Shown here piece after piece: positions 2,711 to 39,145 of a stretch of DNA of 39,145 nt. The first letter of the stretch is position 1, and the number at the start of each line of letters is the position of its first letter. The notes beneath the pieces were generated by a model. That model worked only from the letters and a program-made list of their open reading frames with translations, made no database searches and was not told where the DNA came from. The stretch is from an uncultured archaeon (lineage in GTDB: Archaea > Altiarchaeota > Altiarchaeia > IMC4 > QMZM01): NCBI GenBank assembly GCA_964549685.1, contig CAZJVE010000012.1, positions 1 through 39,145 on the forward strand. Direction: 5' to 3'. The position numbers and the translations under genes were made by a program.

Positions 2711-5026
2711 ATGGAAACCCTGCTTGATATCGACTATACTGTTAGGGATGAGAAGGCCGTCATACGGCTGTACTATAAGACGGACAAGGGCAGGGAAATC
2801 AGGGAGGTTGACGACTTCGAGCCCCACTTCTATGTCACCTCCGACAATCTTGAGCAATCGAAGGAAGAGATTGAAAAGCTGAACGGTGTAGTGAAAGTCG
2901 AGACGGTCAAGAAGGTCGAGGTCAGGCAGGAGATTGAGGTTCTCAAGGTCACGGTGAAGCTGCCGCAGAACGTCCCGGAGCTGAGGGGGGAGATAAAGGG
3001 GTTCGAGAATACCAAAGAGGTGAGAGAGGCGGCTATTCCCTTTGCCGAGAGATACCTTATAAATTCCGGTATTGTTCCGATGGAGAATGCCGAGCAAATG
3101 GGGCTGAAAATTGCGTCCTTTGACCTTGAGGTCTATAATCCTGAAGGGGAGCCGAAGTCGGAAAAAGACCCGATACTCATGATAAGCTATGCGGACTCTA
3201 CCGGGATGAAAAAGGTATGGACTTATAGGGAGACCCCTGGACTAAAGCAGGAATACCTTGAGATTCTGAAGAGCGAGCGGGCAATGATAGAGAAATTCAT
3301 CCAGACCGTGAAGGAGCAGGAGATAGACATCCTGTGCACCTATAACGGCGACAATTTCGACTTCCCGTATCTCAATGAGAGAGCAGCAAAGTATAAGATG
3401 GACGTCGGGCTTGGTATAGATGCAAGTAAGGTAAGGCTTGAAAGAAGGGGCATGAACCTCGGAGCGAAGGTGAGGGGCAGGCCCCACATAGACCTCTATC
3501 CCATATGCCGGCAGGTGTTCAACCTGAGCCGCTACACCCTTGAGAACGTCTACCTCGAGATGTTCGGCGAGGAGAAGAAGGACATAAATGCGAGCGAGAT
3601 GCACAAGGTATGGGATGCCAATGAGACAGGGGCTATGAAGGAGGTATTCGAATACTCAATGGATGATGCAATAGGCACATTGAGAATAGGGCTTGCAATC
3701 CTTCCATTGCAGTATGAGCTTTCCAGGATAACGAGGATTCCGGTCTACAAGTCGTCGAGGTCCGGCTCCGGGCAGAGGGTGGAGGATTTGCTGATAAAGA
3801 GGGCATTCGAGAAGAACATCCTGATACCGAACAAGCCCTCGGACAGGATTGCGAATGAGCGACAAAGGAGCAGCTATGTCGGGGCATATGTCGTCGAACC
3901 AAAAAAAGGAATCCACGACAACATCGTGCTGTTCGACTTCCGCTCCCTGTATCCCTCCATCATAATAAGCCACAACATAGACCCCTCTGCCATGAATTGC
4001 AGTTGCTGCAAGAAGGAGGAGGCATTTCAATCGCCTGCCGGACACCACTTCTGCAAGAAAAACGTTGGGCTGATTCCGGAAACCGTGGGTGAGCTGATAC
4101 AGCGACGAATCGATGTCAAGAAGAAACTGAAAGAGGAAAGCGAGCCAGAAAAGAAGAGATTTCTCGACGTCGAACAGCAGGCGCTCAAGCTCATGTCGAA
4201 TTCCATGTACGGCTACTTTGCCTTTGCAAGGGCTGTGTGGTACTCCCGGGAGTGCGCCGAGGCAATTGCAGCGCTTGGGAGGCAGTACATCCACGATACG
4301 ATAGAGGCGGCCAAGAAGCACGGCTTTGATGTCCTCTATGGCGATACAGACTCCGTCTACATAACCGTCTCAGGCGAGAAGAACAGCAAGAAGATAATCG
4401 CCGAGGCGAAGAAATTCTCCAGCGAGATAAACAAGGAGCTCCCGGGAGGCATGGAACTGGAGTTTGAGGGCTTCTATCCAAGAGGGATTTTCATAACCAA
4501 GAAGAGATATGCGTTGATGGACGAGAAGGGCACTTTACTTGTGAAGGGGCTTGAGGTTAGAAGGAGGGACTGGTCAAACGTTGCGAAGGAAACCCAGACC
4601 AAGGTCCTGAATGCGCTTCTCAAGGACAAAGACCCCAATAAAGCGGCAGAGATAGTGAAGGGAATCGTCCAGAGGATAAAGGCGGGCGATGTGAAGCTTG
4701 AAGACCTCACTATACATACGCAAATAACCAGGGGGATGAATGAATACGTCCAGGCCGGGCCCCACATAATCGCGGCAAGGAAGGCGATTAAGGAGGGCAG
4801 GGAATTCAAGCAGGGGGACATAGTAACCTATGTAGTTACCAAGACAGGCACAAGCATCTCTGACAGGGCGAGGGTTGTCGATTTCGTGCAGGAAGGGGAC
4901 TACGACGCCAACTATTACGTAAATAATCAGGTCCTTCCCGCGGTAATGAGGATTCTCGAGGCGCTTGGGTATTCAGAGGACGAGCTGAAAGGCCTCGGAA
5001 AGCAGATGACGCTCGGCGGGTTCTAG
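2711..5026 (+). CDS. polB: Family B DNA polymerase (archaeal PolB3-like), no intein
   Basis: Exo motifs FDLEV, YNGDNFDFPY and YSMDDA; Pol motifs DFRSLYPSII, KLMSNSMYG and YGDTDS; C-terminal PIP box QMTLGGF. Confidence 0.97.
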   Translation: METLLDIDYTVRDEKAVIRLYYKTDKGREIREVDDFEPHFYVTSDNLEQSKEEIEKLNGVVKVETVKKVEVRQEIEVLKVTVKLPQNVPELRGEIKGFENTKEVREAAIPFAERYLINSGIVPMENAEQMGLKIASFDLEVYNPEGEPKSEKDPILMISYADSTGMKKVWTYRETPGLKQEYLEILKSERAMIEKFIQTVKEQEIDILCTYNGDNFDFPYLNERAAKYKMDVGLGIDASKVRLERRGMNLGAKVRGRPHIDLYPICRQVFNLSRYTLENVYLEMFGEEKKDINASEMHKVWDANETGAMKEVFEYSMDDAIGTLRIGLAILPLQYELSRITRIPVYKSSRSGSGQRVEDLLIKRAFEKNILIPNKPSDRIANERQRSSYVGAYVVEPKKGIHDNIVLFDFRSLYPSIIISHNIDPSAMNCSCCKKEEAFQSPAGHHFCKKNVGLIPETVGELIQRRIDVKKKLKEESEPEKKRFLDVEQQALKLMSNSMYGYFAFARAVWYSRECAEAIAALGRQYIHDTIEAAKKHGFDVLYGDTDSVYITVSGEKNSKKIIAEAKKFSSEINKELPGGMELEFEGFYPRGIFITKKRYALMDEKGTLLVKGLEVRRRDWSNVAKETQTKVLNALLKDKDPNKAAEIVKGIVQRIKAGDVKLEDLTIHTQITRGMNEYVQAGPHIIAARKAIKEGREFKQGDIVTYVVTKTGTSISDRARVVDFVQEGDYDANYYVNNQVLPAVMRILEALGYSEDELKGLGKQMTLGGF

Positions 5027-32793: not shown

Positions 32794-33537
32794 ATGCAAA
32801 TCGTCCACCTCTCAGACTTACATTGCAGTAAGCGCTGGTTCAGTGAGGGGAATCTTGCCCTGGCCATAGAGGAGATAAACGAGCTGAAGCCGGACATGGT
32901 TGTCGTAACAGGAGACCTCACGGAAAATGGGTTTCTCAGGGAATACGAGATTGCCAAGAAATATCTGGACAGGATAAAGTGCAAGAGGACCATCATAGGC
33001 ACGGGGAACCACGACTACCGCTCCACGGGATACCTGCTGTCCCAGAGGTACTTCAAAAGGCCCGAGACCATAAAGCACAAGAACGCCATTGTAACATACC
33101 TGAGCACCGCGAGGCCGGACAAGGATGGGGGCGAAGTAGGCTACAGGCAGCTTCAATGGCTGAAGAGAACCCTGAGCGAAAACAAGGAGAAGTTCAAGGT
33201 CGTTGCCCTTCATCATCACATGATTCCCATCCCCGACACGGGGTTGGAGAGGACCACCATAAACGATGCAGGAGATGTGATAAGGGCACTGACGCAGAGC
33301 AACGTGAACCTGATTCTCTGCGGGCACAGGCACAGGCCCTGGTGCCTTCATCTTGACAGCACCACCATACTGAACGCAGGGACAGTCTCATCTGAAAAGT
33401 TCCGCGGGTTCTTCGCAAACTCCTACAACATCATCAAGGTGAAAAAGAAGAAGATAGACGCGAAGATAAAGGTCGTTGGTGGAGATGCCCTGGACTTCAA
33501 GAAGATTCTGAAGGAGAACGAGCCGTTTATACCCTGA
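32794..33537 (+). CDS. Calcineurin-like metallophosphoesterase (CpdA-like)
   Basis: SDLH, TGDLT, GNHD, HHH and GHRH motifs. Confidence 0.9.
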   Translation: MQIVHLSDLHCSKRWFSEGNLALAIEEINELKPDMVVVTGDLTENGFLREYEIAKKYLDRIKCKRTIIGTGNHDYRSTGYLLSQRYFKRPETIKHKNAIVTYLSTARPDKDGGEVGYRQLQWLKRTLSENKEKFKVVALHHHMIPIPDTGLERTTINDAGDVIRALTQSNVNLILCGHRHRPWCLHLDSTTILNAGTVSSEKFRGFFANSYNIIKVKKKKIDAKIKVVGGDALDFKKILKENEPFIP

Positions 33538-33539
33538 GA

Positions 33540-33566
33540 ATTTCGGAGCATACTTTTGCTCGAAAT
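33540..33566. terminator. Short hairpin after the metallophosphoesterase gene
   Basis: ATTTCG(G)AGCA-tacttt-TGCTCGAAAT, a 10-bp stem with one bulged base. Confidence 0.35.
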
Positions 33567-33579
33567 CTATTATTAAGCT

Positions 33580-34077
33580 ATGGATGTCCTGATACGCCAG
33601 GAGGGTGCCGATGACTATGACGAGATAGACAAGGTCATCGAATCCGCATTTAACCAGAAGAATGAAGCAGAGCTCGTTCGGAAATTGCGCGAAACAGAAA
33701 GATTTAATCAGGTTCTATCTCTTGTCGCAACCATGGGCGATAGAGTCATCGGGCAGATACTTTTTTATCCGGTGAATAGAAAGACACTTATACTTGCCCC
33801 AATGTGCGTAAAGCCGGAAATGCAAAGAAAGGGCGTCGGCGGAAAGCTTATCAAAGAGGGACTGAAGAGGGCATTAGAGCAAGGTTACGACTCGGTGATA
33901 GTGGTTGGGCATCCGGAGTACTATCCGCGGTTTGGCTTCAAGCCAGCAAGCGGATGGAAAATCAGACTGGCGTTTGACGTCCCTGACGAAGCATTTATGG
34001 CAATCGAGTTGATAGATGATTCTCTTGATAGAAAGGGGGGATTAGTGGAACTACCCCGGCCATATATGGAGTGCTGA
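33580..34077 (+). CDS. GNAT N-acetyltransferase (YhbS-like)
   Basis: EAELVRKLR, LAPMCVKPEMQRKGVG and VVGHPEYYPRFGF. Confidence 0.92.
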   Translation: MDVLIRQEGADDYDEIDKVIESAFNQKNEAELVRKLRETERFNQVLSLVATMGDRVIGQILFYPVNRKTLILAPMCVKPEMQRKGVGGKLIKEGLKRALEQGYDSVIVVGHPEYYPRFGFKPASGWKIRLAFDVPDEAFMAIELIDDSLDRKGGLVELPRPYMEC

Positions 34078-34099
34078 TTCTGGCTGGGGAATTCGATGT

Positions 34100-34564
34100 C
34101 TACTTAAGGCTCCGGGCAAACTCTTGTGCATCCTTGAGGTCTTCAGCATTGGGCCTGCCCTTGTTTATTCCCCCGATGTATTTGAGAACGGAGTTGGTGT
34201 CAAGGCCCACACAATTAAATTCACCAGCAATTACGTAGCCTTTTGCCTGCAGTTTTTCCCTAAGGGCGTCATGAAATTTACGCGCAGTACTTCTGAATAT
34301 GCGCGAATCAACGGCAACCCCGCTGGTCGAGAAGATGAACGCCTTTCCTTTTGTTGTTTGCGGCAGCCTGTCGGCAAGCTCAAGCAGGGCCCGGTGGTGC
34401 TTGGCATCATAAATCCCAGAGCCAAAACCTATCAGGTCGTATTCCCCGATATCGCTTAATTCCTTCGGCTCTATCAAATCCGCATCCAGAACTTCAGCCA
34501 TCCTCCTGGCAATCTTCTCTGTGTTGCCGTGGTGTATGGACTTGTTTATTATCAACGTTTTCAT
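34100..34564 (-). CDS. Flavodoxin family protein
   Basis: SIHHGNTEKIA, GFGSGIY, FSTSG and NKGRPNAEDL; true ATG 34564 lies 2 nt after a tRNA-3'-end repeat. Confidence 0.92.
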   Translation of the reverse strand: MKTLIINKSIHHGNTEKIARRMAEVLDADLIEPKELSDIGEYDLIGFGSGIYDAKHHRALLELADRLPQTTKGKAFIFSTSGVAVDSRIFRSTARKFHDALREKLQAKGYVIAGEFNCVGLDTNSVLKYIGGINKGRPNAEDLKDAQEFARSLK

Positions 34565-34566
34565 TT

Positions 34567-34578
34567 TGCCGAAGACGG
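34567..34578 (-). repeat. Direct repeat of tRNA-Met 3' end, copy 3 (CCGTCTTCGGCA)
   Basis: tgccgaagacgg is identical to 37374-37385 and 36317-36328. Confidence 0.9.
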
Positions 34579-34583
34579 TTAGA

Positions 34584-35213
34584 TTATTTCCTCCGAAATA
34601 GTGTGTATATGTACGGCCGGGTGTCTCCTGAGGGCATGTGGTACAGGTAATCGAAGGAGTCAACCAGTTCAAAGTCTTCCCCCAGTTTTTCCGCCAGCAT
34701 TTTGGTGTCGTATCTCTTGACGTCCAGACCGCTGCATTTTTCCGCCCCTTCCAGAGAGAAAACGGCGATAATCACGTGACTGCCTTTCCAGACTACCTTT
34801 TTCAGCGTCGAGAAATAGGCCTGCTGCTGCTCTTCCTCTACCAGGAAGTGCAGCACGGCCCTGTCATGCCAGAGGGCGATGTCCTTTAGAGCATGGATGT
34901 GTTCCGACTGGCCGATATCGTCCACAATCCATCTGACCGAGGAGGCCCTTTCTTCCCCCAACCGCTCCTTTAGCTTGTCCAGGGCTGCTTCACTTATGTC
35001 GGTGGCGATGATATTACTGAACCCCCCGTCGATGAGGGAGTCTATGAACGTCGATGCCCCGGAGCCCACGTCCAAGATGGGCTCGGCCTTGCCGACATTG
35101 CTCTTGGATACCAGGCCCAGGGAAGGCGTCGATTCTTCCTCGTACCAGCCCAGCTTATCCACTTCCCTTGAATGATAGACGCTGTTCCAGTGTTCTTTCA
35201 TTGAGTCATTCAT
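34584..35213 (-). CDS. Class I SAM-dependent methyltransferase (TPMT/TehB-like)
   Basis: HWNSVY, ILDVGSGAS, DISEAAL, WHDRAVLHFL and CSGL. Confidence 0.9.
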   Translation of the reverse strand: MNDSMKEHWNSVYHSREVDKLGWYEEESTPSLGLVSKSNVGKAEPILDVGSGASTFIDSLIDGGFSNIIATDISEAALDKLKERLGEERASSVRWIVDDIGQSEHIHALKDIALWHDRAVLHFLVEEEQQQAYFSTLKKVVWKGSHVIIAVFSLEGAEKCSGLDVKRYDTKMLAEKLGEDFELVDSFDYLYHMPSGDTRPYIYTLFRRK

Positions 35214-35493
35214 TTTTGATTTCCTTTTTCATCTCCCCGAATTGTTTTTTTGTTATCTCGCCCTTGGCATATCTCATCCTGATTATGGTCAGCGCGTCTG
35301 AGGTCTCCCCCCTACTGGAAGAGACAAGGGTGACTACAAGCCAGATAATCGCGCCCCAGAAAAGCAGCATGAATATAAATCCGAATCCCATGCCGAATCC
35401 CATCATGCCGTAGCCTCCCATGCCCGTTCCTCCAAAGATAAACAAAAGGATTACCGCCGCGATGAGAACCCAGAGTGCCGTGTCTTTGTCCAT
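35206..35493 (-). CDS. SHOCT-domain membrane protein
   Basis: Gly/Met-rich GMGGYGMMGFGMGFG, two TM helices, RMRYAKGEITKKQF. Confidence 0.9.
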   Translation of the reverse strand: MDKDTALWVLIAAVILLFIFGGTGMGGYGMMGFGMGFGFIFMLLFWGAIIWLVVTLVSSSRGETSDALTIIRMRYAKGEITKKQFGEMKKEIKNE

Positions 35494-35499
35494 TGTTGG

Positions 35500-35841
35500 T
35501 TACCTCCTCTTCTTGATTCTCTCTGCGAATTTCTGGCCGCTTGTCAGTTGCTCCAGCAGGACCTCCCGCATGATGTCGCAGGCCTGGACAACCTTCGGGT
35601 TTGCTATTCGATAGTATACGCTGAGTCCGTCTCTTCTTGTCAGCACTATCTTCTTGTTCCGCATCAATGCCAGGTGCTGGGAGAGATTGGCCTTGCGTAT
35701 CTTCATCCTTGATGTCAGTTCATCTACCGACATCTCGCTGTCCCGCAGCAGGTTTATTATTTCCAGCCGCTTGGGGTTGGACATGGTCTTGCAGACCTCC
35801 GCGTGCAGCTCGTATATTTTTTTATCCATTTTCTCCCTCAT
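35500..35841 (-). CDS. ArsR/SmtB family transcriptional regulator (two Cys)
   Basis: HAEVCKTMSNPKRLEII, ANLSQHL, YYRIANPKVVQACD; ATGA overlap with the upstream gene. Confidence 0.93.
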   Translation of the reverse strand: MREKMDKKIYELHAEVCKTMSNPKRLEIINLLRDSEMSVDELTSRMKIRKANLSQHLALMRNKKIVLTRRDGLSVYYRIANPKVVQACDIMREVLLEQLTSGQKFAERIKKRR

Positions 35842-36248
35842 AGGGTCTTCCAGACCTTCGCCAGCGACTCCCCTCCAACGTGTATCTTGAATTCAAGGAA
35901 GTAACCGAACGGTGTTGAATCCACCTCGAATCCCTTTTCGGTGAGTTTCGACTTGAGTGACTCAATCATCTCCTGGGCGAATTCAATGCCTGACTTGCTC
36001 TCGGACAGGTGCGCAAAGGAATGGAGCATTATTTTTTCCCGCCCGACCTTCCTTGCGAGCCAGGATATGTTGCTGGTGGCCTTTTTCAGAACCTTCTCCC
36101 TGCGGCTTTCGTCCTCGGCCTCGGACTGCAGGAATACGACAACGGAATCGTTTGTCGTTTGCTCTGTGTTCACGGTCTCAGCGCCTTCCACCGTCTTGCT
36201 GAAGGTCTTGTACCAGAATTCCGGGGAGTCGAACATCAATAGTTTCAT
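35838..36248 (-). CDS. Free-standing threonyl-tRNA synthetase editing-domain protein
   Basis: MKLLMF, EAEDE, LHSFAHLS, TPFGYF and GESLAK match the archaeal-type ThrRS N-terminal editing domain. Confidence 0.85.
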   Translation of the reverse strand: MKLLMFDSPEFWYKTFSKTVEGAETVNTEQTTNDSVVVFLQSEAEDESRREKVLKKATSNISWLARKVGREKIMLHSFAHLSESKSGIEFAQEMIESLKSKLTEKGFEVDSTPFGYFLEFKIHVGGESLAKVWKTL

Positions 36249-36296
36249 AGTTTCTAAATATCGAATATATGATATTATGAATCAATCTTTAAATAC
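36247..36296 (-). promoter_or_regulatory. Promoter and probable ArsR operator
   Basis: TATTTAAAG TATA-like box on the - strand at about 36287-36295, followed by AATATC-N8-GATATT and overlapping imperfect AT-rich inverted repeats abutting the ATG. Confidence 0.5.
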
Positions 36297-36316
36297 CGAG
36301 CAGAAACCAGATAAAA

Positions 36317-36328
36317 TGCCGAAGACGG
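36317..36328 (-). repeat. Direct repeat of tRNA-Met 3' end, copy 2
   Basis: - strand GGGTTCCGTCTTCGGCA versus tRNA GGGTTCAAGTCCCGTCTTCGGCA, i.e. the same sequence lacking 6 nt of the T-loop/stem. Confidence 0.9.
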
Positions 36329-36365
36329 AACCCAATCAAATGTTCGCATAACCAATACGGTAACT

Positions 36366-36400
36366 TGATGTATGGATTTATTTATTATCAGCGTTTTCAC
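36366..36400 (-). pseudogene. 5' remnant of a flavodoxin gene
   Basis: 30/35 nt identical to 34530-34564; encodes (V/M)[10 protein letters not shown]; GTGA overlap with the oxidoreductase stop. Confidence 0.8.
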
Positions 36401-37371
36401 TTTATCGTTATGACGACATTCCCCTTCTTGTGCCCTTTGTCGACATAGCTGTGGGCCTCGACAATCTGCTCCAGAGGATAGCTTCTGTCAATGGCAGCCT
36501 TTAACTCCCCTGCCTCGATAAGCTCTTTGAAGAAGAGCAGGTCCTCGATTCTGTCCCCGGCTACCCCGCCGATTACCTTCTTGCTGCTCGTCATGGAGGT
36601 CCATATGCCTCGGACAAGAGGTGACAGCGTCATGTGGACGGCCCTAAGGTAGCGCCCATTCTCATTCAATGCTTTTACACTGCCTGAAAACGGGCTCTTT
36701 CCTACAGTGTCAAAAATAACGTCATAGGTCTCGCCGTTCTTGGTGAAGTCCTCTTTTGTATAGTCAATCACCTTGTCGGCGCCCAGGGATTTCACCATTT
36801 CCAGGTTCGTGGTGCTGCATACCCCTGTAACCTCCGCTCCAAGGTGCTTGGCAAGCTGTACCGCAAATGTTCCTATCGCTCCGGAAGCGCCGTAGATGAG
36901 GACTTTTTGCCCGTCCCGGACATCCCCTTTCCTAAGGAAATGCAGCGCAGTCTGTGCACCAAACGGAACGGCGGCGGCTTCCTCGTAAGTCATGTTGGCC
37001 GGCTTTGCTGCCAGCGTCCCGTCCTCGGGCAGGCACTTGTACTCGACATGGGTGCCCATTCCAAAACCGGCGGAGCCAAAGACCTGGTCGCCTTTCTTGA
37101 ATTTCTTTACGTCCTTGCCCACTGCCTCAACCTCCCCGGCCAGGGTAAAACCCAGTATCTTGTTCCTTGGCCCTCTGATACCCGAGATTATTCGGTAGGG
37201 GAGCCATGGAAGGGGAGGAACGTCGAAACTCCGGGTTCTCGCGTCCCCTGACGATACTGTCGTTGCAAATACCTTGATAAGAACTTCGTTATCCTTCGGA
37301 ACAGGTTTTTCCACCTCTTCAATCTTGAGAACGTCCGGTGGTCCGTATTTTGTGCATACAGCCGCTTTCAT
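36397..37371 (-). CDS. NAD(P)-dependent MDR oxidoreductase (quinone reductase/zinc-independent ADH-like)
   Basis: [31 protein letters not shown] and GHKKGNVV; true start MKAAVC at 37371, since the track extension reads through the tRNA. Confidence 0.93.
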
Positions 37372-37373
37372 TA

Positions 37374-37488
37374 TGCCGAAGACGGGACTTGAACCCGTGA
37401 CTTCCACGTTTCTCAGTTAGAATGCTCTGGTTTGCCCGCGAGGGCTAACTTATGAGCGTGGCACTCTAACCAGCTGAGCTACTTCGGC
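37374..37488 (-). tRNA. Elongator tRNA-Met(CAT) with 41-nt canonical 37/38 intron (37410-37450)
   Basis: GCCGAAG/CTTCGGC-A acceptor; CCACG-CTCATA^A-CGTGG anticodon arm; perfect bulge-helix-bulge (CTCA/TGAG helix, TAA and AAA bulges, GTTAG/CTAAC); mature length 74 nt without CCA. Confidence 0.95.
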
Positions 37489-37489
37489 G

Positions 37490-37590
37490 GAACTGCAAAA
37501 TCAGTTCACACTTTGTGCGACGTACACTCGCCTACGGCTCGTTAGTCGCACTTGAATTCACCGGGTGAATCCACCGGCGGAATTCAGTGC
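37490..37590 (-). other. Hairpin-rich ~100-nt element between the putative promoter and tRNA-Met
   Basis: Inverted repeats at 37548-37590 (gcac-tgaattc...gaattca-gtgc), 37515-37551 (gtgcgac/gtcgcac) and 37490-37507 (gaactg/cagttc). Confidence 0.65.
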
Positions 37591-37656
37591 TAATCTAAAA
37601 TAACGAATCTAAACTTAAATAGATTTTTATCTGCCTAAGACTAAGTAATAGGTATA

Positions 37657-38913
37657 ATGGCGAAGCTAAGCAGGGAGGAAAGGGAGGCTCAGAGGAAGCA
37701 GAGGTTCCTGGTCATTATGATGCTTGTCGTAGCTGCAAGCATGCTTTTCTCCGGGATTTATTACATCAACATAGGCGGGGGCCCTGCGCCCATTCAGAAC
37801 GACCCGAGCGGGAAGCTTTCGCTCATAGAGCAGTACAATATCGAGCCCGCCACGAGCGGTTCGGTTCTTGTCCGGGCGGGGGAGCTGAAAAACGACCTCC
37901 TTGCAATCCCGATGGGCCAGTGCATGCAACTCGACAGCATAGTCGAGCTGAGGAATTCATCCATCGACGGGGTTGAGAGCATAAGCTGCGAGGTCGCGAA
38001 CCCGCAGATGGACCCCACCTTTTCGATAATCTGCGGCACGTTCATCATGTTCCGGTTCCGGTTCGACCTCAACGACTCGGGAGTTAATGAGAGGGTCAGG
38101 GAAAGGCTGAGCAACGTTCTGAGCGAATACAGCCTGATGAGGGGCTATACCGTGGAGCTGCAGGAGGCTGTCCTCGGCGCCGGTGAGATATACATCATCG
38201 GCAGCCCGGAGACGAAGGAGGGGGACTACGTCAGGGCGACGCTCTTCAGCAGGGACCTGATTGCAGGAGGCACCGGGCTGCTCGGCCTCGAGGAGAGAAT
38301 CGTCCCGGAAGCGTCCCGCGTCCCTGCAACGGTCGTCAACCTAACGGGAATCAGCGTCAGCGGCTCCGTTCCCGATGAATTCAACCGGCAGGCCGTGATG
38401 GATGCACTGGATTTGAACGATACGGAACTAAATTCCAGGCAGCCGGAATTCAGGGTCAATGGAACGTTGCCGGGGGAGAGCCTCGAGCTGATTGAGGCGG
38501 AGATACAGGAGGTCAACAACGTAACGACAATACGCTTCAACACGTCAAAGGACGAGATAGAGGCAGTCATCAAAGACGGGGGGCTGCCATACACCTTCGA
38601 ACCCGGAGCAGTATTCTTCCAGATCGGGCTGAATGATAGCACGGGCTATGTCGAATCGCTGCTGGCTGAAAACGGCGCCGAGAACGTAACCTTCCAGAAG
38701 GTCGGGCTCGTATCGATGCCTGCCGAGGTGATAGTCGGCGAGATGCTGGTTCCGATAGAGAACTACGAGGCATTTAACACAATGCTCAAGATGGATACAG
38801 TTGTAGGAGATGAAATCAACATCAGCCTCAACACCATAACCTTCGGCGATCAGGTGATTCCCTTCGGAGCGCTGGAGCTGGGGAACGAGACTACTCCCAG
38901 TGCTCGTCAATGA
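37657..38913 (+). CDS. Hypothetical membrane-anchored extracellular protein
   Basis: Basic N-terminus, one TM helix, then an acidic domain with many N-x-S/T sequons. Confidence 0.8.
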   Translation: MAKLSREEREAQRKQRFLVIMMLVVAASMLFSGIYYINIGGGPAPIQNDPSGKLSLIEQYNIEPATSGSVLVRAGELKNDLLAIPMGQCMQLDSIVELRNSSIDGVESISCEVANPQMDPTFSIICGTFIMFRFRFDLNDSGVNERVRERLSNVLSEYSLMRGYTVELQEAVLGAGEIYIIGSPETKEGDYVRATLFSRDLIAGGTGLLGLEERIVPEASRVPATVVNLTGISVSGSVPDEFNRQAVMDALDLNDTELNSRQPEFRVNGTLPGESLELIEAEIQEVNNVTTIRFNTSKDEIEAVIKDGGLPYTFEPGAVFFQIGLNDSTGYVESLLAENGAENVTFQKVGLVSMPAEVIVGEMLVPIENYEAFNTMLKMDTVVGDEINISLNTITFGDQVIPFGALELGNETTPSARQ

Positions 38914-39145
38914 ACTGGCAGAACTTCTCGAATGCCTTCTTTCTATGAGATACTTTTGCCTTCAGCTCCGGGTCCTGACCGAATGTCGTTCCCCCGCCCT
39001 CTGGAATGAAAATGGAGTCGTAGCCGAATCCTGCGGTGCCTGTAATCTCCGTACCTATCCTCCCTGCAACCGTGCCGTCGAAAATCTGCACCCCGTCTAT
39101 GTCGCAGTAGCCGATGGCAGAGACGAATTCGGCCCTTCTGTTCTT
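38891..39145 (-). CDS. rdgB: Non-canonical purine NTP pyrophosphatase (RdgB/HAM1), 5' partial
   Basis: RRAEFVSAIGY, GFGYDSIFIP and KAKVSHRKKAF; frame open to the window edge. Confidence 0.9.
   Translation of the reverse strand, partial: KNRRAEFVSAIGYCDIDGVQIFDGTVAGRIGTEITGTAGFGYDSIFIPEGGGTTFGQDPELKAKVSHRKKAFEKFCQFIDEHWE

Follow-up and report, generated by a model that had tools for sequence, protein, structure and literature searches.

A protein-coding gene two nucleotides behind a tRNA gene in a marine archaeon, and its possible expression by read-through

How can a protein-coding gene be expressed when its start codon lies so close to a tRNA gene that no promoter fits between them? We addressed this question for contig CAZJVE010000012.1 of an uncultured archaeon of the Altiarchaeota, which is here called the window and comprises the entire 39,145-bp contig C12 of a genome (G000) of 1.17 Mb in 27 contigs that is 85% complete. 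At 37374..37488 on the minus strand, the window carries a tRNA(CAU) gene. It is followed on the same strand by a gene of 324 codons (36397..37371, TGA stop at 36399-36397) which Pfam and NCBIfam assign to the quinone-oxidoreductase/zinc-type alcohol dehydrogenases (ADH) of the MDR family. From the arrangement of these genes we judge it about an even chance that the oxidoreductase is transcribed by read-through together with the tRNA, released by tRNA 3′ processing and translated in a leaderless manner.

The tRNA/oxidoreductase junction

The tRNA is of the elongator type (G1-C72) and has an intron of ∼41 to 43 nt after the anticodon loop. The Rfam tRNA model (RF00005) matched 37488..37374 with 59.2 bits (E 2.9e-11) and a ∼43-nt insertion following the anticodon loop, and ARAGORN, which misses the gene at default settings, reported tRNA-Met(cat) at c[37374,37488] once introns were allowed. 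The acceptor stem pairs GCCGAAG with CTTCGGC, A37374 serves as the discriminator, and CCA is not encoded. In two congeners the tRNA is 97% and 87% identical, and an orthologue is present in many members of the family. ARAGORN placed introns of 14 to 74 nt in 7 of the 27 tRNAs of the genome (Gly, Ser, Trp, Met, Ala, and Ile).

Read along the minus strand, the junction is ...GGGTTCAAGTCCCGTCTTCGGCA-TA-ATGAAAGCG, in which the two-nucleotide spacer TA (37372..37373) separates the discriminator from the oxidoreductase ATG (37371-37369). The product contains the Pfam domains ADH_N, ADH_zinc_N and ADH_zinc_N_2, and its full-length homologues, up to 73% identical, come from both bacteria and archaea. 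Among the 80 homologous loci kept, the match starts at residue 1 of the query in 76 and at residue 3, 6 or 18 in the others, from which we conclude that ATG 37371 is the true start. The GTG at 37407 given in the mechanical list of open reading frames (ORFs) was ruled out, since the homologues begin at the ATG and the longer frame would overlap the tRNA. For gene callers the locus holds a warning, as the default tRNA scan missed an intron-bearing tRNA into which the mechanical ORF list runs by 36 nt. The initial annotation had placed the start codon exactly 2 nt after the discriminator, and the sequence itself, the tRNA ends given by Rfam and ARAGORN and the alignment of homologue starts all agree with this.

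The public sequencing runs that contain the stretch are all marine or seawater metagenomes, and no RNA run is among them. Contigs from four DNA runs in three studies bridge the tRNA/oxidoreductase junction, which is therefore not an assembly artefact; these contigs are of low depth, and the parts that they leave uncovered are uninformative. In one metagenome contig, the match is limited to the first 44 nt of the oxidoreductase ORF (37328-37371) and gives way exactly at the ATG to unrelated sequence; the contig probably carries a homologue from another organism, in which the upstream sequence is different.

That there is no room for a promoter, as the initial annotation put it, is literally true, with gaps of 2 nt before the oxidoreductase and 19 nt before a flavodoxin gene further along the same strand. 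TATA-likeness was measured as the maximum number of A/T positions that an 8-mer reaches between -36 and -20, with 346 mechanically called genes that have at least 70 nt of upstream space ('stand-alone' genes) as the reference. Of these, 183 scored 7 or more and only 36 scored 4 or less. The oxidoreductase scored 4/8, so that no TATA-like box was found at -36..-20, and a bPH_2-domain gene that follows tRNA-Phe elsewhere in the genome (see below) scored 3/8. The scores were 6/8 for the flavodoxin gene, 7/8 for the gene of a threonyl-tRNA synthetase editing domain (ThrRS-ED) and 8/8 for the divergent gene at 37657, where TTTTTATC at -33..-26 gives what we read as the geometry of a leaderless transcript. 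A promoter hidden within the tRNA gene or its intron, from which a primary oxidoreductase transcript would arise, is very improbable: nothing direct speaks for it, the intron being somewhat less G+C-rich than the exons, and beyond the low score at -36..-20 no TATA-like 8-mer was seen by eye elsewhere in the 115-nt gene.

A motif test likewise found no run of five T residues for 657 nt downstream of the tRNA; in several relatives (e.g., at loci L011, L014, L016, and L021), T-rich runs stand immediately 3′ of the orthologous tRNA. With neither a TATA-like box nor such a T run, read-through from the tRNA promoter is the simplest route by which the oxidoreductase could be expressed. That promoter probably lies in the AT-rich region 37590-37640, upstream of the structured 5′ flank of the tRNA. 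The flank (37489..37600, plus strand) consists of an AACTG..CAGTT hairpin at the tRNA 5′ end and two further hairpins, and is probably transcribed as a part of the tRNA 5′ leader. On the minus strand, the TATA-like sequence GTTATTTTAGA at 37593-37603 may serve the tRNA.

We propose the following course of events. A laterally spread oxidoreductase(-flavodoxin) unit would have ended up flush against the tRNA in an insertion hot spot, where RNA polymerase coming from the tRNA promoter would run on into the ORF and yield a tRNA-mRNA co-transcript. tRNase Z cleaves pre-tRNAs behind the discriminator, so that the trailer starts with a 5′ phosphate. Here, this enzyme or an equivalent would cut after A37374 and free an oxidoreductase mRNA with a 2-nt leader and a 5′ monophosphate (pUA-AUG...), which would be translated in the leaderless style.

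A second flush gene and the survey of relatives

Only 2 of the 27 tRNAs of the genome, as counted by ARAGORN with introns allowed, have a validated gene flush against them. The second lies on contig C5 (4700-5460), where the order is an rpL35Ae-like gene, a structured element, tRNA-Phe (4845-4918), a single T and an ATG. By its C-terminal residues the upstream gene is a putative rpL35Ae. The downstream gene, whose ATG follows tRNA-Phe by 1 nt, encodes a 179-aa bPH_2-domain membrane protein. No TATA-like sequence is visible before either tRNA-Phe or the bPH_2 gene, and this points to a possible mRNA-tRNA-mRNA transcript.

In the congener G002, the N-terminal coding sequence of the bPH_2 gene is kept, with synonymous changes, 4 nt after tRNA-Phe, and the gene has suffered a large internal deletion. 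The tRNA-Phe of G002 contains a 66-nt intron that is absent from the orthologue in G000. Two other relatives (G009 and G014) show the same synteny with spacers of ∼33 and ∼55 nt, and in the congener G001 the bPH_2 gene is found elsewhere with an AT-rich upstream region of its own. As for tRNA-Met, the next gene follows after 9 nt in G001. In G016 (locus L008 on contig C150, 1500-1946), a gene for an Rpp14/Pop5 RNase P protein (Pfam, 83 bits) begins 7 nt behind the orthologous tRNA.

We then surveyed 22 genomes of the family for an ATG within 0 to 2 nt of a tRNA-end pattern, with the reversed pattern as a control. The pattern matched 71 times and the control 43 times. We examined 41 of the 71 matches, 30 selected automatically and 11 that looked tRNA-like by eye; the rest have no T-stem complement. 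Among the matches examined, 14 in the 21 genomes other than G000 were tRNA-borne, and 3 of these open an ORF of at least 70 aa. These three ORFs (72, 116, and 146 aa) look spurious, since two have T-runs right after the ATG and none appeared protein-like by eye. One further candidate, an ATG 2 nt after the discriminator of a tRNA-Pro in G010, was set aside because the start is more likely the next ATG, 17 nt downstream of the discriminator. To the extent that it was sampled, the distance from tRNA end to next ATG across the lineage thus does not support a conserved flush arrangement. As far as these genomes indicate, flush starts are a feature of this genome, and loosely of its genus, rather than a family-wide design.

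This outcome is one of several points that weigh against expression of the oxidoreductase through the tRNA. The 14 tRNA-borne ATGs examined in relatives opened no credible gene, so the flush arrangement may be a recent accident rather than a selected design. Co-transcription, the cleavage site and translation of the oxidoreductase are all deduced from DNA sequence, and this lineage would need to be able to translate a 5′-monophosphate mRNA whose leader is only 2 nt long. The best tRNase Z candidate in the 85%-complete genome is a 258-aa MBL-fold protein on contig C7, which reached 65 bits against a cut-off of 293. Archaeal RNA polymerase can also terminate without a run of five T residues, and a cleavage factor might end the tRNA transcript. 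Lastly, one of the points in favour is crude, because start codons were called mechanically: in the genome-wide upstream profile, 344 genes show an A/T peak at -33..-26 from the ATG (0.64-0.71 versus ∼0.60) and only a weak Shine-Dalgarno-like peak, so that at least part of the genes in this genome look leaderless.

A rival explanation is neutral. The flush junction could be a scar left as the by-product of an insertion or deletion beside the tRNA, with the tRNA transcript ending at or near the tRNA 3′ end, either by factor-dependent termination or by processing and decay of the trailer. The oxidoreductase would then be silent, have weak expression from some cryptic start, or be in the course of being lost. 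The arrangement is confined to this genome, the deletion in the G002 gene shows that abutted genes can decay, the content of the island behind the tRNA (see below) is accessory and patchy, and the best tRNase Z candidate stays far below the cut-off. However, the oxidoreductase ORF is intact over its 324 aa and aligns at full length with homologues of up to 73% identity, the terminator motif is absent for 657 nt, the junction recurs in contigs of four runs from three studies, and the sequence of the flush bPH_2 gene is conserved between species. Taken together, these data lead us to regard a neutral scar as possible but doubtful.

Repeats of the tRNA end and the variable island

The last 12 nt of the tRNA, CCGTCTTCGGCA, occur exactly three times in the 1.17-Mb genome, in each case in the window and on the minus strand; for the window, 0.30 matches with at most one mismatch would be expected. 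Copy 1 (37374..37385) is the tRNA end itself. Copy 2 (36317..36328), an exact 12-mer assigned to repeat family D10, is preceded by GGGTT (36329-36333), and the two together read like a tRNA T-arm with 6 nt missing in between. Copy 3 (34567..34578) lies 5 nt past the TAA stop of a methyltransferase gene and 2 nt ahead of the ATG of the flavodoxin gene (34100..34564, minus strand; 154 aa; Pfam Flavodoxin_5), and continues as AA-ATGAAAACG, the flavodoxin start at 34564.

The initial annotation had pointed out that the oxidoreductase and flavodoxin starts have identical geometry. Both ATGs do stand 2 nt after the 12-mer, but the two junctions are not independent. A 23-nt repeat of 91% identity (D3), made up of the 12-mer and xAATGAAAxCG, is common to the tRNA/oxidoreductase junction and the copy-3/flavodoxin junction. 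A second repeat (D1; 38 nt, 87% identity) relates 36403..36366 to the flavodoxin start at 34567..34530. The first of these segments (36366..36403, minus strand) is a remnant of a flavodoxin 5′ end that has GTG in the start position and overlaps the oxidoreductase TGA: the flavodoxin start reads A-AA-ATG-AAA-ACG-TTG-ATA-ATA..., and at the oxidoreductase stop, where the remnant begins, the sequence is ATA-AAG-TGA-AAA-CGC.... The oxidoreductase ORF sits exactly between two TGAAA pentamers, and the flavodoxin junction looks as if the oxidoreductase ORF had been taken out, so that the left part of the tRNA/oxidoreductase junction now meets the remnant. In the relative G007, an oxidoreductase (46% identity) is directly followed by a flavodoxin (59%), with an AT-rich upstream region of its own and no tRNA nearby. 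This pair indicates that oxidoreductase and flavodoxin are an old gene pair, and the remnant would be the old flavodoxin start. Together with D1 and D3, it argues that the two identical geometries are one junction by descent rather than independent events. By this comparison, the flavodoxin junction probably arose as a copy of the tRNA-end junction, with the oxidoreductase either deleted from it or inserted into it. The remnant and copy 2 are separated by 37 nt. For the 42 nt that precede copy 2 (36329-36370, of which 5 nt belong to the end of the remnant), the genome contains no other copy.

The flavodoxin gene also does not hold up as a second case of tRNA-led expression, since it follows a 12-nt scar and not a tRNA. 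With E values up to 1, Rfam found one tRNA only in 33000-39145 and none at copies 2 or 3, so tRNase Z would have no substrate at the flavodoxin gene. A tRNA-like fold around these copies was rejected on the same Rfam result and by eye, as a GCCGAAG partner for the acceptor strand was seen neither within ∼150 nt upstream of copy 3 nor within ∼40 nt upstream of copy 2. The flavodoxin ATG is 19 nt past the methyltransferase stop, in last position of a five-gene same-strand cluster. The gene reads as the last member of an operon that starts after copy 2, which would explain its expression without the tRNA.

The other four genes of this cluster (34584..36248, minus strand; Pfam) lie between copies 2 and 3 and encode a free-standing ThrRS-ED of 136 aa (35838-36248), an ArsR-family regulator (35500-35841), a SHOCT membrane protein (35206-35493) and an S-adenosylmethionine-dependent methyltransferase (34584-35213), with tight junctions that consist of a 4-nt overlap, a 6-nt gap and an 8-nt overlap. 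Between copy 2 and the ThrRS-ED ATG at 36248 is an AT-rich promoter/operator-like region (36249..36316, minus strand) with TATA-like motifs and an imperfect palindrome. A similar region precedes a 75%-identical ThrRS-ED homologue in the relative G030. The statement that the middle copy is followed by its own TATA box and operator therefore agrees with the sequence, and the feature is kept in G030. The closest copies of the ThrRS-ED and ArsR genes, 73 to 80% identical, are those of G030 and G031 (loci L209 and L210), which belong to another family of the order; the genus itself has only ThrRS-ED paralogues of 33% identity. The ThrRS-ED of the window is the third in the genome, after a full-length ThrRS on contig C14 and another free-standing copy on contig C3.

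The segments lie in a variable island of 3.8 kb (33547..37373), delimited by blastn and alignment, which extends from the tRNA 3′ end to a conserved metallophosphoesterase gene. Beyond the flavodoxin gene comes a convergent GNAT gene, and from ∼33547 downwards the sequence is common to G001. What lies 3′ of the orthologous tRNA differs in every relative compared. In G001, the same tRNA and metallophosphoesterase gene are ∼10 kb apart, with unrelated glycan genes in between. The G001 island (locus L024 on contig C50, 971-11114) encodes GT4 glycosyltransferases, GH130, PIG-L and a glucosamine-6-P isomerase-like protein; it is bounded by two partial copies of the tRNA end and has a DUF6036 nucleotidyltransferase gene in a small distal segment. 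At E≤1e-10 the oxidoreductase was found in 1 of 40 relatives, and at E≤0.001 the flavodoxin in 9 of 40. A PF00589 tyrosine recombinase/integrase was not found in the 85%-complete genome, the island of the window or the genes of the G001 island, nor did a repeat scan reveal terminal inverted repeats or a casposon- or transposon-like structure at the segment borders. At the far border of the island, the only candidate for a fourth repeat copy was a 10/11 match inside the GNAT coding sequence, which we treated as chance. By its content, the locus behaves like a variable, tRNA-linked hot spot of insertion and rearrangement in this genus. It resembles tRNA-targeted islands and integrative elements in its direct repeats of the tRNA 3′ end, its congener-variable content and its conserved flanks. 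It differs from them in that no integrase accompanies it, its repeats measure 12 to 17 nt, its segments measure 1.0 and 1.7 kb, and for one junction, duplication and deletion of its neighbour is the better explanation.

The island also bears on the analogy with the integron promoter Pc that the initial annotation had drawn. In its strong form this would make the locus an integron-like platform: promoterless cassettes, each framed by copies of the tRNA end, would be inserted at the tRNA and driven by the tRNA promoter in the role of Pc. Three same-strand copies do bound gene-sized segments, the gene nearest the tRNA has no promoter, and further copies occur in G001 (15 nt and 16/17 nt, bounding other genes) and in G007 (33 nt, 258 bp downstream of the tRNA). 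But the genome and the G001 island yielded no PF00589 recombinase, and the repeats are plain copies of the tRNA end, without the imperfect palindrome of attC sites and without a boundary pair of inverted repeats in the repeat scan. Moreover, the four genes of the middle segment form an operon that has a promoter and operator of its own, most segment genes in G001 face away from the tRNA, and descent accounts for the flavodoxin junction. Contigs of the four metagenome runs showed no joints at the 12-mers, which at their low depth is weak evidence. We consider a cassette platform improbable and do not retain the Pc analogy. What the locus shares with an integron is that a promoterless gene would be expressed by virtue of its position behind a fixed upstream promoter; it departs from one in having no IntI-type recombinase that we could find and no attC, and in segments that are neither uniformly promoterless nor uniformly oriented. 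Of the proposal that a tRNA promoter drives a promoterless gene, the part that stands is the oxidoreductase, with no promoter space, TATA-like box or T run, to which the bPH_2 gene adds a second flush case. The flavodoxin gene is not an example, the integron comparison fails and the arrangement is not conserved in relatives.

Known systems, the structured element and what the junction would mean

Co-transcription of tRNA and mRNA is in itself already documented in archaea. In Thermococcus kodakarensis, a tRNA-Lys (TKt3) lies inside the 159-nt 5′ untranslated region of TK0306 and is apparently co-transcribed with it (PMC4247193). In Nanoarchaeum equitans, the 5′ end of the C/D box small RNA (sRNA) sRNA8 is produced when RNase Z cuts a tRNA-Val precursor, and the precursors of some tRNAs run together with the mRNAs next to them (PMC3491384). 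Going by these descriptions, the present locus is like both in that a tRNA lies upstream on the same strand and the downstream RNA has no separate promoter, and like N. equitans in that the tRNA 3′ cut would set a 5′ end. In contrast to what they describe, the downstream RNA here would be an mRNA whose AUG is 2 nt (1 nt at tRNA-Phe) from the proposed cut, which would make it effectively leaderless. A limited search of the open-access literature, which is not proof of absence, turned up no archaeal mRNA with an AUG 1 to 2 nt from a tRNase Z cut.

The mitochondrial tRNA punctuation model, reportedly put forward by Ojala, Montoya and Attardi in 1981, is closer in geometry. In mitochondria, tRNAs are cut out of polycistronic transcripts, and the mRNAs set free in this way start at the AUG or beside it and need no leader for translation. 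The route proposed here is similar in that excision of a tRNA would release a near-leaderless mRNA. However, the archaeon here is free-living, most of its genes have ordinary promoters, and only 2 of 27 tRNAs are flush with a gene; we mean a mechanistic analogy, not a relationship. In the Escherichia coli thrU-tyrU-glyT-thrT-tufB operon, tRNA genes and a protein gene are under one promoter, and the mRNA has a normal leader with a ribosome-binding site. A shared promoter would be the likeness to our locus, and the 2-nt spacer is the difference.

Both tRNAs with a flush gene carry on their 5′ side the structured element noted above. It is ∼100 nt long and, in order, comprises a hairpin AACTG-N4-8-CAGTT, CACAC, a GTGGGG/CCCCAC hairpin and a GAATTCCCC/GGGGAATTC hairpin; it lies 0 to 3 nt from tRNA 5′ or 3′ ends, always pointing outward from the tRNA. 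In addition to 37489-37600 (plus strand) of the window, sites in the genome are C1:157850, C2:137669, C2:46341, C5:4842, C5:65832, C5:65976, C7:25181, C8:38665, C15:13558, C17:21706, and C21:1253. An nhmmer search returned 17 hits, 13 of them beside tRNAs; the element also occurs beside a 5S-like gene and a possible C/D box sRNA. By BLAST it was found only in the three genomes of this genus, and it matched no Rfam family. Its role might be to signal processing, to terminate transcription or to act as an insulator. A 10-mer, AATT[CT][AC]CCNG, whose core is GAATTCCCC, has 227 copies where ∼36 would be expected from length alone (e.g., window 34079-34090); the copies are spread genome-wide on both strands, within and between genes.

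If the oxidoreductase is not expressed through the tRNA, the locus is an ordinary rearranged island behind a tRNA. If it and the bPH_2 gene are, the two would indicate that a free-living archaeon can obtain translatable, near-leaderless mRNAs through tRNA 3′ processing, so far a mitochondrial hallmark. Genome streamlining could then remove a promoter entirely by parking a gene behind a tRNA, and the immediate expression of foreign ORFs that arrive at tRNA ends would be explained. As a broader and more tentative suggestion, which we think plausible but unlikely, tRNAs would punctuate mixed transcripts in this streamlined marine genus, the two flush loci being examples, and their processing would give functional, essentially leaderless 5′-monophosphate mRNAs, a free-living counterpart of mitochondrial punctuation in which the tRNA 3′ end is an expression-ready landing site. 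An incoming ORF would need only its own AUG behind a highly expressed tRNA.

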